NCBI GenBank assembly: GCA_965248445.1 | Contig: CBDFJG010000003.1 | Coordinates: 1,184,001-1,248,000, forward strand | Origin: Planctomycetota bacterium | GTDB lineage: Bacteria > Planctomycetota > JAJSAM01 > JAJVHW01 | Reading direction: 5' to 3' | Length of the DNA stretch: 64,000 bases | In this document: positions 1-8,493 of the stretch, piece after piece | Layout: each line of letters opens with the position of its first letter | How positions within the stretch are numbered: the stretch's first letter is position 1 | The notes under the pieces: generated by a model | Seen by the model: the letters and a program-made list of their open reading frames with translations, nothing else | Database searches by the model: none | Told to the model about the DNA's origin: nothing | Program-made: the position numbers and the translations under genes

Positions 1-190
1 TAGCGGCGCACTCATTGCGGTCGATCGTGCCCCCACGCGGCAGCAGGTCTTCGCGCTACCGCCGCGACTGGTCCACGTGACCGAGCACCGGCTGCACCGC
101 GCTCGCTGCACAGGGTGTGGGATGACGTCCACGGGGCGTCTGCCCGATGGCGTCACCGCCAGTCCCTTCGGTCCACGGCTCACCGCACTG
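1..190 (+). pseudogene. IS66-family transposase fragment, interrupted by IS3 at 191 and continuing off the left edge
   Basis: Frame 2 reads ...QQVFALPPRLVHVTEHRLHRARCTGCG..LPDGV..SPFGPRLTAL, homologous to HQVTVLPRVLVTVREHRLHKARCRRC..LPDGVPTGAFGPRLTTL in the IS66 transposase at 30941-32341. Confidence 0.85.
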
Positions 191-245
191 TGGAGTTCCC
201 CCGGTTCGGTGGACACCCGACCACTGAGGTTGGGAGGATGTCCAG

Positions 246-560
246 ATGCCCAGATCGAGACCACCGTACGACGAGGAGTACAAGCGCCAGATCGTCGAGT
301 TGCACCGCGCCGGCCGGAGCGTGATGAGCCTGTGCCGCGAGTTCGAGCCGACGGAGATGACGATCCGCAAGTGGATCAAGCAGGCCGCGCTGGACGCCGG
401 AGAGCGTGACGACGGCTTGACCACCGCGGAGCGCGATGAGCTGCGCAAGCTCAGACGAGATGTGCGCCGGCTGCGCGAGGAGCGCGACATCTTGAAAAAA
501 GCCGCGGCCTGGTTCGCTCGGGAGACGCGCTCGATCCCAGAGAAGGGTTCGGGTTCGTGA
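246..560 (+). CDS. IS3-family transposase OrfA (HTH and leucine zipper)
   Basis: YDEEYKRQIVEL..TIRKWIKQ..ELRKLRRDVRRLREERDILKKAAAWF, typical OrfA. Confidence 0.92.
   Translation: MPRSRPPYDEEYKRQIVELHRAGRSVMSLCREFEPTEMTIRKWIKQAALDAGERDDGLTTAERDELRKLRRDVRRLREERDILKKAAAWFARETRSIPEKGSGS
495..501 (+). promoter_or_regulatory. Programmed -1 frameshift signal (A AAA AAG) for the OrfAB fusion
   Basis: AAAAAAG near the end of orfA, upstream of the -1 frame orfB; canonical IS3 slippery heptamer. Confidence 0.75.
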
Positions 561-1414
561 GCGATCACCAGGCAGAGCACGACGTGGCCACCATGTGTCG
601 GGTCCTCGGCGTCTCGAGGAGCGGGTACTACGCATCGCGCGGCCGTGCGCCCTCGAAGAGAGATCGCGAGGACGCTGCCCTGACCGAGCGCGTCCGCGAG
701 ATCCACGAGCGCTCTCGCCAGACGTACGGATCACCGCGCATCCATGCCGAGCTGCGCTACGAGGGCCTCCACATCGGTAGGAAGCGCGTCGAGCGCCTCA
801 TGCGCCAGGCTGGGATCGAGGGCGTGAGCCGCCGCAAGAGAGCCAAGACCACGAAGCGCTCGCAGCGTCAGGCGCCGGCCGCCGACCTGGTCGATCGCGA
901 CTTCACGGCCGACGCACCCGATCAGCTCTGGGTGGCCGACATCACGTACGTGCCGACCTGGACGGGGTTCCTGTACCTGGCGGTCGTCCTCGACGTCTGG
1001 AGCCGCCGGATCGTCGGCTGGTCCATGGCCACGACGCTCCACACCAAGATCGTGCTGGACGCACTCGAGATGGCCGTGCGCCAGCGCCAGCCCCTCGGAG
1101 TCGTCCACCACTCCGACCAGGGCTGCCAGTACACGTCGCTCGCCTTCGGGCGGCGCTGCAGAGAAGCGGGCGTCAGGCCGTCCATGGGATCGGTCGGAGA
1201 CGCCTACGACAACGCCATGTGCGAGAGCTTCTTCGCCACGCTCGAGACCGAGTTGATCGACCGCACCAGCTTTTCGACCAAGTCCGCAGCGCGGTTGGCG
1301 GTGTTCGACTTCATCGAGGGCTTCTACAATCCGCAGCGGCGACACTCCTCCATCGAGGACCTGTCGCCGATCGAGTTCGAGCGCAGATTCCGGCAGAGGG
1401 CCGGAGTTGCATAG
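557..1414 (+). CDS. IS3-family transposase OrfB (rve/DDE integrase core)
   Basis: WVADITY, HHSDQGCQY and DNAMCESFF motifs. Confidence 0.95.
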   Translation: MSDHQAEHDVATMCRVLGVSRSGYYASRGRAPSKRDREDAALTERVREIHERSRQTYGSPRIHAELRYEGLHIGRKRVERLMRQAGIEGVSRRKRAKTTKRSQRQAPAADLVDRDFTADAPDQLWVADITYVPTWTGFLYLAVVLDVWSRRIVGWSMATTLHTKIVLDALEMAVRQRQPLGVVHHSDQGCQYTSLAFGRRCREAGVRPSMGSVGDAYDNAMCESFFATLETELIDRTSFSTKSAARLAVFDFIEGFYNPQRRHSSIEDLSPIEFERRFRQRAGVA

Positions 1415-1447
1415 CCCCCGGGTGTCCACCGAACCGGGGGAACTCCA

Positions 1448-2127
1448 GTTCGAGTCGGACGCAAGCGCGTCGAGCGACTCATGCGCGAGGCGGGCATCGA
1501 GGGCGTGAGCCGGCGCAAGCGGACGAGGACGACGAAGCGGGCCAAGCGTCACGCACCCGCCGCCGATCTCGTCGACCGCGACTTCACGGCCCACGCCCCG
1601 GACGAGCTCTGGGTCGCGGACATCACGTACGTGCCGACCTGGTCGGGCTTCCTCTACCTCGCCGTCGTCCTCGACGTCTGGAGCCGGCGCATCGTCGGCT
1701 GGTCGATGGCGACGACCTTGCACACCAAGATCGTGCTGGACGCGCTGGAGATGGCCGTTCGTCAGCGTCAGCCCCTCGGCGTCGTGCACCACTCCGACCA
1801 GGGCTGTCAGTACACGTCACTCGCGTTCGGGAAGCGGTGTCGAGAGGCCGGCGTCCGGCCGTCCATGGGCAGCGTCGGCGACGCCTACGACAACGCCATG
1901 TGCGAGAGCTTCTTCGCCACGCTCGAGATGGAGCTCATCGATCGCACCAGCTTCCCGACGAAGTCCGCAGCACGCCTCGCTGTGTTCGACTTCATCGAGG
2001 GCTTCTACAATCCGCAGCGGCGACACTCCTCCATCGAGGACCTGTCGCCCATCGAGTTCGAGAGGCGGCGACGGCCGGAGGCCGCCGTGTCATAGTCCCC
2101 GGGTGTCCACCGAACCGGGGGAACTCC
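1448..2127 (+). pseudogene. 5'-truncated second IS3 element (copy B): C-terminal OrfB and a right IR split by the intron
   Basis: Starts mid-OrfB (VRVGRKRVERLMREAG) directly after the IRR of copy A; stop at 2095; IRR ...ACCGGGGGAACTCC ends at 2127 and its terminal A lies at 4109 after the intron. Confidence 0.9.
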
Positions 2128-4108
2128 GTGCGCCACGAAGGTGTCGATGTCCAGCAAGTGAGAGTCTTGTCCGTGAAACTGACGGTCCACCACGGTAGCT
2201 ACCCGGGCACGGTCGGTCGGCAACGATCGGCGGTGAAGCCCCGGGGACAGGGGGCCGCTTCTGGCGGTCCGGCAAACCCGCAGGCCGCAATGCGTGTGAA
2301 TCCTGAGCAGGCCCCGAAAGTGAAGTCGCAGACGCCGACCCGCCGGAGTTACGGGGAAGGCCGCAGCGCGTCCGGGAAGCGACCGTCAAGCGCACCGGGT
2401 GCGGTCCGCCGGGGTATGGGGAGCAGCATGCGGGGAAGGACATCGTCGCAACGTGGGAGGCCCGGTCGGGTGCGGGGTCGTTGCCCGCAGCGTCACATCT
2501 GGTGGCGGCCTGGCCGGGAGTCGGACGGGTGCGTAGTACCGCTGAAGCCGGGTAGTGCCGGTGGAGGGAAGGCGCCCTACGTCTGGGACGCTCTCGAAGC
2601 GGCCAAGGGTCGGGGATTGGCGTGAGCCTGGTAACCCCACCGAAGATCCGGCGGCTGCAGAGGAAGCTCTACGCGAAGGCGAAACAGGAGCCGGGCTTTC
2701 GCTTCTACCAGCTCTACGACAAGGTCCACCGGGAGGACATCTTGGCCCATGCGTACGCGCTCTGCCGCAGCAACGGTGGTGCGCCCGGCGTGGACGGGGT
2801 GGACTTCGCGGAGATCGAGTCAGCGGGGCTTGCGGAGTGGCTGTCGCGGCTCGGGGAGGAAGTGCGGAGCAAGAGATACAAGCCGGACCCGGTGCGCCGG
2901 GTCCTGATTCCGAAACCTGGTGGTGGCGAGCGCCCGCTTGGGATTCCGACCATTCGGGACCGAGTGGTGCAGACCGCTGCCAAGCTGATCCTGGAATCGA
3001 TCTTCGAGGCGGACTTCGAGGACTGTGCCTTCGGGTACCGTCCGAAGAGAAGCGCCCAGCAGGCGGTGAAGGCCGTGCACCGGGCCCTTTGTCAGGGCTA
3101 CACGGACGTGGTCGACGCCGACCTGTCGAAGTACTTCGACACGATCCCGCATCATGCACTGATGCATTCGGTGGCCCGCCGTGTGATGGACCGCCATATG
3201 CTGAAGCTCATCAAGGGCTGGCTGAAGGTGCCGGTCTGGGAGCGGGACGGCGACGGACGCACGCGGATGTCGGGCGGCAAGAAGAGTCGCTGCGGCACGC
3301 CGCAGGGCGGCGTCATCAGCCCCCTGCTCGCAAACGTGTACATGCACCGCTTCTTGCGGGCATGGCGCGAACGCGGCAAGGGCTACGCGTTTCGGGCGCA
3401 CATCGTCAACTACGCGGACGACTTCGTCATCCTGAGCCACGGCAACGCGGCAGAGGCTCTGGCGTGGACGCGCGGTGTGATGGGCGCCATCGGCCTTTCG
3501 CTGAACGAGACCAAGACTCGCCTGTGCAACGGTCGCACGGAGTGCTTCGACTTCTTGGGCTACACCTTCGGCCCGGCGCGCTACTGGAAGACCGGGAGCG
3601 CATACCTGGGAGCGATGCCGTCGAAGAAGGCGGTGGCGCGGCTGAAGCGCCGTGTCCACGAGGAACTGGGAAGAGGGATTGTCTCGCCGTGGGACGAGGT
3701 GCGTCTACGCCTGAACCGGGTCCTCCGGGGCTGGTCGGCGTACTTCAACTACGGCGCGCGCCGCAAGTCGTACCGAGCGATCGACAACTACGTCGAGAGC
3801 GCGGTGCGCGACTTTCTCCAGCGCCGCCACAAGGTGCCTGGACGGGGCATTCGGCGCTTCGGCGCGGCCACGATCTTCGGGCCGCTCGGCGTGCTGCGTC
3901 TGCGTGACGTGCAACTGGATGGACTGTGACAGCCAACGCGAGAACCCAGTCGGGAAGCCGGATGCGGGAGATCCGCACGTCCGGTTTGACGAGCGGGGGC
4001 GGAAGACGGAGCTACGACGGGACCTGAGGCACCGGCACCGTGGCGAAAGCCGCCGGCGAACTGCTACTCATCCCGATCTATGGCCACCGCGTCCGCCCTC
4101 GACTCCAC
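2128..4108 (+). ncRNA. Group II intron (IIB-like, En-minus IEP), full length
   Basis: 5' GTGCG at 2128; domain V GAAGCCGGATGCGGGAGATCCGCACGTCCGGTTTG (3954-3988, AGC triad); domain VI with bulged A and 3' end ...GACTCCAC at 4108; EBS1 GGAGTT at 2345-2350. Confidence 0.93.
2622..3929 (+). CDS. ltrA: Group II intron reverse transcriptase/maturase without endonuclease domain
   Basis: GAPGVDG, RPLGIPTIRDRVVQ, GTPQGGVISPLLANVY, YADD and FDFLGY motifs plus thumb/X domain; no HNH C-terminus. Confidence 0.95.
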   Translation: MSLVTPPKIRRLQRKLYAKAKQEPGFRFYQLYDKVHREDILAHAYALCRSNGGAPGVDGVDFAEIESAGLAEWLSRLGEEVRSKRYKPDPVRRVLIPKPGGGERPLGIPTIRDRVVQTAAKLILESIFEADFEDCAFGYRPKRSAQQAVKAVHRALCQGYTDVVDADLSKYFDTIPHHALMHSVARRVMDRHMLKLIKGWLKVPVWERDGDGRTRMSGGKKSRCGTPQGGVISPLLANVYMHRFLRAWRERGKGYAFRAHIVNYADDFVILSHGNAAEALAWTRGVMGAIGLSLNETKTRLCNGRTECFDFLGYTFGPARYWKTGSAYLGAMPSKKAVARLKRRVHEELGRGIVSPWDEVRLRLNRVLRGWSAYFNYGARRKSYRAIDNYVESAVRDFLQRRHKVPGRGIRRFGAATIFGPLGVLRLRDVQLDGL

Positions 4109-4138
4109 ACTGGTTCTGTACCGGCGAGGGCTCGCGCC

Positions 4139-5341
4139 TTACCAGTCGCTCCACGAGAAGCCGCGCGGCAGCATGTCCCGGAACAGCTGGTCCCGTTCGT
4201 CTCGCTGGCGCTTGCGCTGCTCGATCTCTTCGCGATCCTCCGCGGAGAGCTCGCCAAGACCGAGGCCACGGGCAACCCTTCCCGCGAGCGCAAGCGCAAG
4301 CGCATCTCCGTGATCCGGTGAGCGTCCGGTCCGGTCGCGGATGCGCTTCTTCGGCTCAAGCGCGACTCGGCCGTCGGACTTCATCTCATACTTCGGGGCA
4401 CAGAGGTCCGCTCGCAGGATGTCCTTCACATCGGGGTTGAGGTCGGCGAGAGCGGCTTTCTCACGAAGCCACGTGCGCAGATCCCACCAGAGCTCGGTGC
4501 GGCGATTGGCGAACGTCTCCTCGCCCTTGTAGCCAACCGCCTTGCTGCCGAAGTTGACGGCATTCACGCCCCAGCCGAGTTCGCGGAGACGATCCGTTAC
4601 TCCCCCGCCGACGCCGGTGTCGTCGATCGCGATCCGCCAGGCGTCCGGTATCCACATGCCGAGGTCGCGTGCAAGTGCCACAACGCGGCCGGCGGTGCGC
4701 ATCGTGTCTTGCCCCGACCACGACTCGACATGCGCAACGGCTCCACCGCGGACGACGTAGATCACGGTCTCGTCCGATCCGAAGCGAGCAACGTCCACAC
4801 CGATCGTCGGACGCTCTTCGCACTCCTCGGCCGCTGATCGCGCCAGGGCGCGCTCTACCTCTGCGATCGAGATCAGTGTGTCGATGGCCGTCTCGGGGAA
4901 CAGCCCCAGCACCTTGGTCTGGTAGATGACGCTCCCCTCGCCCCACCGCCGACGCATCTCGTCCACCCACTTCTGGGTCACGCCCCACGGCTGTTGCACA
5001 GCACCGGGCTGGAGGTTCGGGCAATCGAACGCGCTGATGCGCAGCACGCGCCAGTCGGGTGATCGACACACCCGTTCGAACTCTGTTCCGCTCGCGGGGT
5101 TGCCGATGGCGAGGACCTTGGCGTTCTCGGACGTAAGCAGAGAGTCCACCGCGGCCCACACTTCGCGTGCAATGCCACCGGCCTCGTCCAGGATCACGAG
5201 CAAGTGGCCGCTGTGGTAGCCGCTCATCCGCACGGCGCTCTCCTGCGCCTTATCGGGGCTGGTGGCAAACCCCGTCGCGAACCAGTCTGCCTCGATCTCC
5301 CAGTGCGTGAGGCTCGGCGTACCGAGACCGGGGTCGCCACC
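4139..5341 (-). pseudogene. Phage terminase large subunit, N-terminally truncated by IS insertion
   Basis: Walker B LLVILDEAGG, LAIGNP, nuclease motifs IGVDVARFGSDETV, IAIDDTGVGGGVTDRL and SPDHGDALALA; frame stays open up to the IS junction but has no Walker A or N-terminus. Confidence 0.88.
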
Positions 5342-5343
5342 TA

Positions 5344-6821
5344 GCAGCGTGTTGAAAAACCGCGTCCCGGCCGATTCTTAGAAGTAGGGGTCGGCCCGGG
5401 AGGACGGTCATGGCATTGGGTAGGCGTGGCGAGGAGCAACAGGGGGCGTTGTGGGTGGCTGCGGAGCGACTGAGGTCGCCGGGGCACCCGTTTTACGACG
5501 CGCTCAACCGCCTCCTGGCCGAGATCGACTTCGACCCGCGGATCGAGGAGTTGTGTGCGTCGTACTACGGCGAAGGCGGTCGCCCGAGCATCCCGCCCGG
5601 CGTGTACTACCGCATGCTGTTCGTGGGCTACTTCGAAGGTCTTGGTAGCCAGCGCGCGATCGAGTGGCGCTGCGCGGACAGCCTGTCGCTTCGCAGCTTC
5701 CTGGGGCTCTCGGCGAGCGATCGCGTGCCGGACCACTCCTCGCTCACGCGCATCCGGCAGCGTCTGGCGCTCGAGATCGACGAGGCGGTGCACCATATGG
5801 TGCTGGGACTGGCGGCGACCAAGGATCTGTTGGAGGGCAAGACGCTGGGGGTGGACGTGACGCTGATCGAGGCGTGCGCGGCGATGCGGCGCATCGTGCG
5901 TCGCGAGGACGGCAAGGACTGGAAGCAGTACGTGAAGGGGCTTGCCGAGCAGGATGGCGTGGAGATCCGGGACGACGAGGATCTGCGGCGCTACGACAAG
6001 AAGCGCCGCAAGAAACGGGTGAGCAACAAGGAGTGGGAGTCGCCGACGGACGAAGACGCGCGCATCGCCAAGATGAAGGACGGCCGCACGCGCCTGGCCT
6101 TCAAGGTCCAGCACGCCGTCGCCATGCAGAGCGGCATCGTGGTGGACGCCGCGGCGCACACGGCCGACACCGCGGACTCCGCCGCGATCGAGGAGGGTGT
6201 GCTCTGCGCGCAGGTGCATATGGACGAGGCCGACGCCGACGCGCAGGTCGCTGAGGTCGTGGCCGACAAGGGCTACCACAAGGCCGAGGTGCTGGCGGCC
6301 CTCACGGAGAGCGGACTGCGCACCTACGTGCCCGAGCGCAGCGACGCGCAGCGGCGGCGCTGGATGGACAAGCCGGCGAGTTGGAAGAGCGCGGTGTACG
6401 GGAACCGCCGGCGCGTGAAGGGCACCTACGGCAAGGCACTGCAGCGTCGCCGCGGCGAGATGGTCGAACGGAGCTTCGCGCACGCGTGTGACAGCGGAGG
6501 CATGCGTCGATCGACGTTACGCGGACTGCTGAACGTCCACCGACGAGTGCTCGTGCAGGCCGTCGCCATGAACCTCGGGACGATCCTGCGCTCGATGATC
6601 GGCGTGGGGACTCCCAAGCGGCTGGCGGAGGCGTCGAAGGGCCTTGCAGCGGTCGGATGCGGCGTCTCTCGAGCCCTTCGAGCCGCGGCGGCGGTGCTCC
6701 GTGCCGCGAAAGTGCGAGGCGGCCTCGGCGAGGTGTCCGCGACTTGGTCCCGGACCGGGCCGTCCCAACCGCGCCCATCGAGAGCACTCGCGGCGTGAGG
6801 GCCGCTTCTTCAACACGCTGC
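5344..6821 (+). mobile_element. IS1182/IS5-like insertion sequence
   Basis: IRs GCAGCGTGTTGAAAAA / TTCTTCAACACGCTGC; flanked by TA on both sides (cTAg left, cTAa right). Confidence 0.88.
5410..6798 (+). CDS. IS1182/IS5-like DDE transposase (DUF772 N-terminus)
   Basis: GRPSIPP, PDHSSLTRIR, VADKGY and RRRGEMVERSFAH motifs. Confidence 0.9.
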   Translation: MALGRRGEEQQGALWVAAERLRSPGHPFYDALNRLLAEIDFDPRIEELCASYYGEGGRPSIPPGVYYRMLFVGYFEGLGSQRAIEWRCADSLSLRSFLGLSASDRVPDHSSLTRIRQRLALEIDEAVHHMVLGLAATKDLLEGKTLGVDVTLIEACAAMRRIVRREDGKDWKQYVKGLAEQDGVEIRDDEDLRRYDKKRRKKRVSNKEWESPTDEDARIAKMKDGRTRLAFKVQHAVAMQSGIVVDAAAHTADTADSAAIEEGVLCAQVHMDEADADAQVAEVVADKGYHKAEVLAALTESGLRTYVPERSDAQRRRWMDKPASWKSAVYGNRRRVKGTYGKALQRRRGEMVERSFAHACDSGGMRRSTLRGLLNVHRRVLVQAVAMNLGTILRSMIGVGTPKRLAEASKGLAAVGCGVSRALRAAAAVLRAAKVRGGLGEVSATWSRTGPSQPRPSRALAA

Positions 6822-6824
6822 TAA

Positions 6825-8493
6825 CCCGAATCGTTCACCAGCCGGGAATCTGAGCGGGCCGTCGTCTGTCTAAGTGCTCGTACGCGCCAGTACTTGCACC
6901 GACAGGAGCGCCGGCCCGATGACGACAGACTGTAGCCCGCAGGGGACCCTCTTCGCGGGCATCTGTGGACGCACCGCGGTGACGCGCTTCGACGCGGGTA
7001 CCGTGACGAGCGACGGGGGCGTGCTGCTGCTCGAGCGGACCGATCGTCGCATCGATCTGCTCTCGCGGTTTGCGCGCTGCTTCCGCGATCACCGCGACCC
7101 GCGTCGGGTCGAGCACACGGTCGGCCAGATGCTGCGTCAGCGGGTCTTCGGGCTGTGCGCGGGCTACGAGGATCTGGTGGACCACGACCATGTCGGCAAG
7201 GACCCGCTGTTTGCCGCGGCGTGCGGCAAGCGCGAGGGTGCTCTGGCCACGCACCCGACGCTCTCGCGGCTCGAGACCACGCAGCTCGGCGCCACGGCAC
7301 AGACGCGCTACGCCAAGATCGAGATGGACCAGGAGCGCGTGGACAGCGTGCTCAGCGACGTCTTCTGCGAGGCCATGGGGCCGGAGGATCCGGGCCTGCT
7401 CGTGCTGGACCTGGACCACTCCGACGTGCGGCTGCACGGCCGGCAGGAGGGCCGCTTCTTCCACGGCTACTACGGGCACTACTGCTACCTGCCGCTGTAC
7501 GTCTTCTGCGGCGAGCACCTCTTGCTCGCTCGGCTCCAGACCGCTGACAGAGATCCCGCGCGCGGAGTCGTGGACGAGCTCCGTGCGCTGGTCTTACGTC
7601 TGCGGCGCCGCTGGCCCCGGGCCAAGGTGCTCGTGCGCGCAGACTCGGGCTTTTGCCGCGAGGAGCTGATGGCCTGGTGCGAGGCCGCCGGCCACTTCTA
7701 CCTGCTGGGCATGGCGCGCAATGAGCGCCTTGAGCGACACGTCGAAGACGCGCTCGATGAGGCCGCAGCCCGTGCCGTGCAGACCGGCCGAGCAGCCCGG
7801 GTCTTTCGCGACTTTGCCTGGACCACGCTGGGGAGCTGGAGCCAGAGGCGTCGCGTGGTCGCCAAGGCCGAGCACCTGCCGGGCGGCAAGCGCAATCCCC
7901 GCTTCGTGGTGACCAATCTGCCGCCTCGTAGCTGGAGCAGCAAGCGTCTCTACGAGCAGCTCTACTGCGCCCGGGGCGAGGCGGAGAATCGCATCAAGGA
8001 GCAGCAGCTCGAGCTCTTCGGCACCCGTCTGTCGGTGCACACGATGCAGGGCAACGCCGTGCGGATGGCCATGTCGGCCATGGCCTACGTCCTGACCTGT
8101 GCGCTGCGACGCATCGGTCTCGCCGGCACCGAGATGGCGCGTGCGCAAGCCGGCACGATCCGCCTGCGGCTGCTCAAGATCGGCGCGCTCGTGCGGATCA
8201 CGACGCGCCGGATCTGGGTCTCGATGTCCTCGTCGTGGCCCTGGCAGCACGTCTTCGAGCGCTGCGCGCAACGACTGCTGGCATCCCCGAAGCCGACCTG
8301 ACGTCCCGCCGCGCCGTCCGCCACACCACCGCCCGGCCTACGGTCTGCCCACACCGCAGAATCCGCGCCGTTTCGGCCGCTCACTCGCGTTGCCCTTGTG
8401 GCAACGACGACAGCATCCGCCCTCGCCTGGCCAAGATCTGACCCTGTGGACTCCGAAAGCACCGTCATCGCGATGTCTCGTGAACAGATGCGG
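6825..8493 (+). mobile_element. IS1380-family element, copy 1 (1669 bp)
   Basis: Ends CCCGAATCGTTCAC / GTGAACAGATGCGG; near-identical to 23618-25286; flanks CTAA and CTAG. Confidence 0.93.
6919..8301 (+). CDS. IS1380-family transposase (DDE_Tnp_1_4)
   Basis: TSDGGVLLL, LDLD..DV.LHG.QEG.FFHGYY..YCYLPL, VRADSGF and YCARGEAENRIKE; AGGAG RBS before the ATG at 6919. Confidence 0.94.
   Translation: MTTDCSPQGTLFAGICGRTAVTRFDAGTVTSDGGVLLLERTDRRIDLLSRFARCFRDHRDPRRVEHTVGQMLRQRVFGLCAGYEDLVDHDHVGKDPLFAAACGKREGALATHPTLSRLETTQLGATAQTRYAKIEMDQERVDSVLSDVFCEAMGPEDPGLLVLDLDHSDVRLHGRQEGRFFHGYYGHYCYLPLYVFCGEHLLLARLQTADRDPARGVVDELRALVLRLRRRWPRAKVLVRADSGFCREELMAWCEAAGHFYLLGMARNERLERHVEDALDEAAARAVQTGRAARVFRDFAWTTLGSWSQRRRVVAKAEHLPGGKRNPRFVVTNLPPRSWSSKRLYEQLYCARGEAENRIKEQQLELFGTRLSVHTMQGNAVRMAMSAMAYVLTCALRRIGLAGTEMARAQAGTIRLRLLKIGALVRITTRRIWVSMSSSWPWQHVFERCAQRLLASPKPT

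Follow-up and report, generated by a model that had tools for sequence, protein, structure and literature searches.

A 64,000-nucleotide stretch of the genome of a Planctomycetota bacterium (GenBank assembly GCA_965248445.1, contig CBDFJG010000003.1, here C3, positions 1,184,001 to 1,248,000 of the forward strand), referred to below as the window, carries a complete and apparently intact group II intron at positions 2128-4108 of the plus strand. The intron interrupts the right terminal inverted repeat of an insertion sequence (IS) of the IS3 family. This IIF-like intron, which encodes no endonuclease, was probably guided by its RNA to a point one base inside the tip of that repeat, where it would have entered by reverse splicing followed by reverse transcription. 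Guidance by the intron RNA is well supported by covariation among related introns: an exon-binding site in domain I (EBS1, GGAGTT) pairs with the six IS bases that precede the cut, and a second site (EBS3, U2417) with the terminal A of the repeat.

The intron and the inverted repeat it interrupts

The intron measures 1981 nt, or 673 nt without its open reading frame (ORF). It begins with GTGCG at 2128, matching the consensus GUGYG, and ends with ...CGACTCCAC at 4108. The core of domain I (2152-2295, plus strand) was matched by the Rfam model RF02003 (group-II-D1D4-4) with 81.6 bits (gathering score 49, E 2.5e-16). At the other end, positions 3950-4111 fold with -79.8 kcal/mol (z -3.33), and none of 200 shuffled sequences folded as well. 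Domain V, placed at 3955-3987 by this fold and by a sub-threshold match to RF00029 (37.5 bits, gathering score 40), has a 5-nt terminal loop. It is followed by a long, structured domain VI of 115 nt (3991-4105), in which the predicted branch-point A is bulged at 4102, 7 nt before the intron end, with CUC and then CAC after it in the fold. The RF00029 match sets the end of domain VI at 4077. We rejected this end in favour of 4108 because a second copy in the genome is identical through 4108 and the next three nucleotides (ACT), and because the 3' motif ACT[CT][TC]AC is conserved behind domain V in 63 of 78 related loci, whose flanks diverge immediately beyond it. The limits proposed from the sequence-only reading of this DNA, 2128 and 4108, are thus borne out by the GTGCG start, the RF02003 match, the fold of domains V and VI and the 3' motif of the relatives.

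In domain IV of the intron, an uninterrupted ORF on the plus strand (2622-3929) encodes a reverse transcriptase and maturase of 435 aa, identified through its translation and through Pfam matches to RVT_1 (E 5.4e-36) and GIIM (E 6.1e-11). The YADD motif is present. Beyond RVT_1 and GIIM no Pfam family matched this protein at E <= 0.001, and its C-terminus extends 28 aa after the GIIM match; it therefore has no DNA-binding/endonuclease (HNH) region.

Two IS3-family copies lie directly upstream. Copy A (191-1447, plus strand) is intact and 1257 bp long according to Pfam and genome comparison, a minor correction to the extent first given for it. Its orfA (246-560) matches HTH_Tnp_1, and its orfB (557-1414), in the -1 frame, matches rve, HTH_21 and rve_3; a slippery site, A6G, can be read directly from the sequence at 495-501. 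The element is bounded by perfect 29-bp inverted repeats with TG...CA ends and is one of 10 full-length copies in the genome that share 98-100% identity. Duplications of 3 bp were read around 3 of these 10 copies, the remainder being rearranged. Copy A thus shows the features by which the IS3 family is recognised, namely an orfA with a helix-turn-helix, an orfB with a DDE-type rve domain, a frameshift of -1, ends of the form TG...CA and target duplications of 3 bp. Both of its repeats carry a vacant intron target at the tip. In the left repeat (191-219) the target is on the minus strand, as an exact 22-mer at C3:1184191-1184212; the right repeat (1419-1447) ends in ...GGAACTCCA on the plus strand. 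The vacant sites suspected at 191-197 and 1441-1447 are therefore real.

Copy B (1448-2127, plus strand) adjoins copy A directly. It is diverged and truncated, its 5' half being gone, and is 86% identical to copy A over A positions 585-1257; an orfB remnant remains at 1481-2095 (rve, rve_3 and rve_2). Its right inverted repeat (2099-2127) lacks the last base. Window positions 2100-2127 equal IS3 repeat positions 2-29 at 100%, and the terminal base alone is missing. This base, an A, is found at 4109 as the first base of the 3' exon, where it serves as the intron-binding site IBS3 according to the sequence, the comparison of repeats and the covariation of EBS3. The intron thus splits the repeat of copy B between ...GGAACTCC and its last A, just as had been proposed, and its precise removal would regenerate ...GGAACTCCA.

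The locus is heavily rearranged, and the left flank of copy A is an IS66 gene that continues differently in six intact copies, as might be seen if the IS3 element had landed beside a pre-existing intron or if the arrangement were an artefact of assembly. Either origin is exceedingly improbable. An incoming IS would bring its terminal A before GTGCG, whereas the A actually follows the intron; the genome is assembled in 4 contigs; and the intron begins and stops exactly where homology places its ends.

The IS66 flank itself (window 1-190) corresponds to the zinc-finger part of an IS66-family transposase gene, with a weak match to zf-IS66 (22.7 bits against a cut-off of 27.3). It is 100% identical to six further copies, all of which continue beyond position 190; recombination between IS copies has therefore rearranged the locus. 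We also considered whether CTG at 188-190 and again at 4110-4112 could be a 3-bp duplication around a unit of IS plus intron. This was rejected because the left flank belongs to the IS66 gene, of which the six intact copies continue ACTGCC..., and the right flank is unique DNA, so that the two do not add up to a single empty site.

Guide sequences and use of the repeat tip

Guide sequences were located by comparison with 78 loci encoding homologs of the intron protein (40-77% identity), together with copies from two genomes of the same family. The 5' regions of these relatives were found by motif anchoring; blastn with the first 170 nt of the intron recovered 4 of the 78. In 34 distinct relatives the domain I stem-loop at 2334-2361 (plus strand) has a variable 7-nt loop on a stem in which 98.7% of cells are paired and 4 of 7 pairs have changed on both sides. 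None of 500 shuffles paired as well, and slid controls were paired at 22-68%. Among 43 distinct combinations of intron and exon, base pairing of exon positions -1 to -7 with 2345 to 2351 occurs in 100, 100, 98, 95, 93, 88 and 84% of cases, and each of these columns shows the highest mutual information of all domain I columns for its exon position. EBS1 was assigned to 2345-2351 (GGAGTTA) on the strength of this pairing and this mutual information. In the window six of its bases pair, GGAGTT (2345-2350) with AACTCC (2122-2127), the latter being IBS1 by the same covariation. The earlier proposal that GGAGTT is the EBS1 loop is hence borne out by covariation of the stem and of the exon, and not by a fold alone.

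EBS3 was assigned to U2417 (plus strand), the position with the highest mutual information with exon +1; this column pairs with exon +1 in 86% of 29 relatives, and in the window it faces A4109. The nearest relatives have G at this column, and the 3' exons of such copies in one of the same-family genomes (G007) start with C. From the EBS1 and EBS3 pairings together, the intron RNA therefore reads the last seven bases of the IS3 repeat. For EBS2, mutual information, mapping of 5-mer complements and comparison with the nearest relatives, covering exon positions -8 to -16, gave no consistent position. A CGGG behind the EBS1 stem was tried as the EBS2 partner of the CCCG found in IS1380 repeats and was rejected, as CGGG is conserved in introns with other exons.

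These pairings lead us to infer that the tip of the IS3 repeat is the cognate homing site of this intron, and one of several retargetings within a clade for which the terminal repeat of IS1380 elements is the most frequent landing site. A number of results weigh against this view. As EBS2-IBS2 could not be placed, target specificity is demonstrated for 7 nt only, and the A at +1 taken alone would match with a chance of 1 in 4. The exact 22-mer of the repeat tip occurs 24 times in the genome, 23 times vacant and once occupied, which is odd for an actively homing intron. The junction at copy B is the single one of its kind, as the other copy of the intron in this genome has no 5' exon. The 3' exons of both copies begin ACT, so that the target could extend into positions +2 and +3 rather than consisting of the IS tip and any flank. 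No intron junction at an IS3 tip was found in 16 other genomes of the order, and a scan of metagenomes for EBS1 loops with GGAGTT returned 25 stretches with 0 IS3 junctions. The near relatives, moreover, target IS1380-type repeats and not IS3 tips.

An alternative is that the insertion was a one-off ectopic retrotransposition of an intron whose natural site is some other AACTCC|A(CT) sequence, with no specialisation on IS3 repeats. The occupancy of 1 in 24, the different targets of all near relatives and the missing EBS2 would fit such an event, as would the ACT at +1 to +3 in both copies, given that CT follows the tip in 0 of 10 IS3 copies with flanks read. We nevertheless hold it to be unlikely, since EBS1 (6 of 6 bases) and EBS3 match the tip perfectly, whereas ectopic sites are usually mismatched. 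The EBS1 sequence also differs at 5 of 6 positions from that of the nearest relative (L033) and at 2-4 from those of two aligned G007 copies, which argues against a near-cognate slip of an IS1380-targeting intron; and terminal repeats of transposons are the habitual landing place of the clade. Guided insertion at a cognate IS3 tip accordingly remains our preferred reading.

The occurrences behind these counts are few. In this genome there is one full intron, one 250-nt 3' fragment and a single gene for the intron-encoded protein. The fragment (L002; C3:487033-487282, minus strand) is 100% identical to the window copy and, from intron position 1732, joins a truncated IS66 transposase gene in its middle; its 3' exon begins ACT like that of the window and then differs. 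With one full copy, one fragment and 23 empty tips, the intron is almost inert in this genome. Among the 16 other genomes of the order, 1 has the repeat tip, once and empty. Five matches to the junction pattern with GTGCG, other than our own, were found in the order; all were read and none was an intron.

About 7 of the 25 metagenome stretches represent another intron type, which starts GCGCG behind a 5' exon ending ...AAATACTCC. Six metagenome contigs (L153, L165, L167 and L169-L171) share the EBS1 hexamer of the window, start with GCGCG and not GTGCG, and have a conserved exon ending ...AAATACTCCAAATACTCC. A further one, L168, is by appearance a variant or truncated copy of the GCGCG type. 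One other stretch starts GTGCG after a different exon, and the remaining ones have no intron start at the expected distance. In contigs from sequencing runs, no record extends over 31 letters on both sides of either junction, and none counts as bridging; a joint across 2128-4108 was likewise found in none of these contigs, which cannot show absence. Two sediment runs (X5 and X6) gave pieces with 2 to 33 differing letters each (about 1-7%), without readable 5' exons.

As for orientation, the cumulative GC skew of C3 peaks at about 680 kb, the skew being weak and the genome rearranged and rich in IS. If this peak marked the terminus, the full intron (1.186 Mb, plus strand) and the fragment (0.487 Mb, minus strand) would both oppose fork movement; we draw no conclusion from this.

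IS3-family transposases need the terminal CA of the element. The insertion should therefore disable this end of copy B at the DNA level, because the transposase acts on DNA and splicing cannot restore the end. On this basis the sequence-only reading had cast the intron as a hyperparasite that suppresses the spread of IS3; on such a view it could also be a host-beneficial brake with a measurable effect. The expected loss of a functional end speaks for such a role, and a similar one has been proposed for RmInt1 in ISRm2011-2 (PMC5894124). We see no sign of it here and regard it as very improbable: the 10 full-length IS3 copies stand at 98-100% identity with every tip empty, the genome has one gene for the intron-encoded protein, and the sole occupied copy is a diverged relic that was already truncated.

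Insertion sites of related introns

The sequence-only reading had expected homologs of the intron to sit consistently at IS3 repeat tips, and this is not the case. In two genomes of the same family (G006 and G007), 16 of 17 readable 5' junctions follow TA(R)CCCG..TCA, and the sequences upstream of -18 are unrelated. This motif makes up the outer terminal inverted repeat in elements of the IS1380 family (PF13701, E 1e-141) and in transposable elements of the miniature inverted-repeat type (MITEs) of about 240 nt. With one mismatch allowed it occurs 91 times in the genome of the window, in part as such MITEs, 128 times in G007 and 85 times in G006; the reversed-pattern controls gave 0. The IS1380-targeting introns are inserted 16-17 nt into the repeat and are oriented inward. 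Relatives in seven metagenome-assembled genomes (MAGs) of other phyla, in genome G294 and on plasmids of Mesorhizobium and Rhizobium are preceded by the same target. On one of these, Rhizobium leguminosarum plasmid NZ_CP016288.1 (L216), an IS1380 transposase gene is flanked on both sides by annotated intron genes that point inward. This arrangement suggests an intron in each of the two terminal repeats of one IS; the left junction was verified, and the right one is truncated where the locus ends. The genome of the window, with its 91 occurrences of the motif, holds no IS1380-targeting intron. An IS1380-family element is present in the window, with a transposase gene at 6874-8301 (PF13701) and an empty outer-repeat motif, TAACCCGAATCGTTCA, at 6822-6837.

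Other relatives use other sites. One occupies an IS1595-family tip, with an inverted-repeat partner that matches at 19 of 24 bases and lies 1045 nt upstream. Some are in the arms of palindromes of 45-90 nt, resembling repetitive extragenic palindromes (REP-like hairpins), near genes for Y1 (IS200-like) transposases. Among the latter is a multi-copy relative with 65% protein identity in two MAGs of Alphaproteobacteria (L035-L044, L050, L083 and L102). It targets ...TGCACTGTCACCGT|AAT, the right arm of the 45-90-nt palindromes, some of which are beside Y1 genes; several 3' exons of this group have reiterated CCGTAAT-like units, and in L043 a different intron-like start lies directly behind domain V. 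A relative in G006 with 76% nucleotide identity (L111, contig C129) follows directly on the right arm of a 13-bp inverted repeat with arms about 60 nt apart, and its EBS1 has one mismatch to the exon. Further relatives are inside conserved codons of IS5 and IS110 transposase genes, and one is at the end of a gene for an ATP-binding cassette (ABC) substrate-binding protein. Overall, an inverted-repeat partner lies no more than 250 nt away at 14 of the 73 distinct sites, compared with 5 of 420 control positions, the sites not being mutually independent.

The protein tree was built from 42 hand-picked representatives, with redundant copies and one short row excluded. The window protein groups with that of L033 with a support of 93/78 (unstarred), and both fall in a starred three-row clade with a copy from G006. 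Of the 5' exon of L033, 6 nt are readable and fit the IS1380 motif. Targeting of IS1380 repeats is scattered across the whole tree. A habit of inserting into the terminal repeats of transposons is supported for the clade. The idea that the intron homes into IS repeats therefore stands in part: EBS1 and EBS3 fit the IS3 tip and the clade uses transposon repeats, whereas IS3 tips are not its general target.

A broader reading would make the IIF-like clade a guild of specialists in terminal inverted repeats, those of DNA transposons, and in palindromic repeats, which retargets EBS1 and EBS3 between transposon families and for which IS3 was one jump. Its targets include IS1380 across several phyla, IS3, IS1595, REP-like hairpins near Y1 genes and MITEs, and beside base pairing it may make use of repeat arms that are single-stranded and prone to form hairpins at replication forks. 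We offer this tentatively, as a possibility that is clearly less probable than guided insertion at the IS3 tip itself; if true, it would make the clade a parasite of transposon ends in general.

The surroundings of the intron in the window are mobile elements almost throughout the first 8.5 kb. Directly 3' of the intron, a 364-aa ORF on the minus strand (4139-5233) matched no Pfam family; positions 4110-4400 are found nowhere else in the genome. An IS5/IS1182-like transposase gene (5410-6798; DUF772, DDE_Tnp_1 and DDE_Tnp_1_6) separates the intron locus from the IS1380 element.

Intron class and comparison with known systems

With a 5-nt domain V loop, a domain VI of 115 nt and a ribozyme of 673 nt, the intron has the traits of IIF (class F) introns, whose ribozyme is described as small and IIB-like, with 5 nt in the domain V loop and a domain VI that is long and structured (PMC3753933). 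It looks IIF-like in class and IIB-like in architecture, the protein tree made here holding no named reference introns. A comparison set consists of the g3 introns of Toro and Martinez-Abarca (Ni.ha.I1 and D.a.I1) and of Pe.th.I2 and Ge.ur.I1 (PMC3552965 and PMC3753933), which share with the window intron a domain V loop of 5 nt, a domain VI that is long and structured, a ribozyme of 450-700 nt and the lack of an endonuclease domain. Both Ni.ha.I1 and Ni.ha.I2 are assigned to class F/group g3 (PMC3552965). The intron protein is 64% identical to a protein on plasmid 1 of Nitrobacter hamburgensis X14.

Class C (IIC) introns insert behind terminators and in integron attC sites; they have no endonuclease, a short EBS1 and no EBS2, and recognise a DNA stem-loop. 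The window intron resembles them in lacking an endonuclease and in the association of landing sites with inverted repeats or hairpins. It differs from them in an EBS1 of 6-7 nt that covaries with the exon and in its apparently IIB-like architecture.

The system most similar in its choice of target is RmInt2 of Sinorhizobium meliloti GR4. All 7 of its copies occupy inverted repeats of ISRm17, and experiments demonstrated its homing; insertion into repeats doubles the sites per IS, of which one is guaranteed to be on the lagging-strand template (PMC4615759). This mode of targeting is therefore already on record with the RmInt2/ISRm17 case (PMC4615759), and the notion of introns curbing IS elements is also in print (PMC5894124). 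Like RmInt2, the window intron has no endonuclease, pairs its EBS sequences with an IS inverted repeat, uses U and A for the EBS3-IBS3 pair, and has two sites in opposite orientation per IS. Unlike RmInt2, which belongs to class D (IIB3), it looks IIF-like: the class D C-terminal motif LX3AX3PXLF[V/A]HW (PMC4615759) is absent from the protein, whose C-terminus reads ...FGAATIFGPLGVLRLRDVQLDGL on inspection. The IS here is of the IS3 family and is cut 1 nt from its tip. Against the 7 copies and the experimental homing of RmInt2 there is here 1 full copy, known from its sequence. The multi-copy occupancy of one position in both left and right repeats seen with RmInt2 is not found at the IS3 tips (1 of 24) and is found for relatives in IS1380 repeats.

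RmInt1 in ISRm2011-2 (IS630 family) is likewise an endonuclease-less intron in a multi-copy IS, and it has been proposed to block the spread of that IS (PMC5894124). In the same review, from the group that described RmInt2, the authors state that ISRm2011-2 is kept from spreading by intron insertion and that harmful mobile elements may come under the control of introns (PMC5894124). The RmInt1 target is inside the transposase gene, where splicing could in principle rescue the mRNA, whereas that of the window intron is a DNA end.

For IS1380, we found no title or abstract linking the family with group II introns in a search from which subscription journals were largely absent. A single lineage that uses IS1380 repeats in several phyla and has switched to other transposon ends bears on how mobile elements parasitise one another. 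For annotation, IS ends that are interrupted in this way, and contig breaks at introns, are easily misread. The covariation analysis gives positions for EBS1 and EBS3 in an IIF-like lineage that do not depend on a single fold. The IS3-tip case opens no new principle; it extends the few documented intron homing sites in IS repeats to the IS3 family and to an extreme position, the element's last base. Relative to RmInt2 the novelty is thus modest and lies in the IS family, in a cut one base short of the end and in an intron of what looks to be an IIF-like clade instead of class D.

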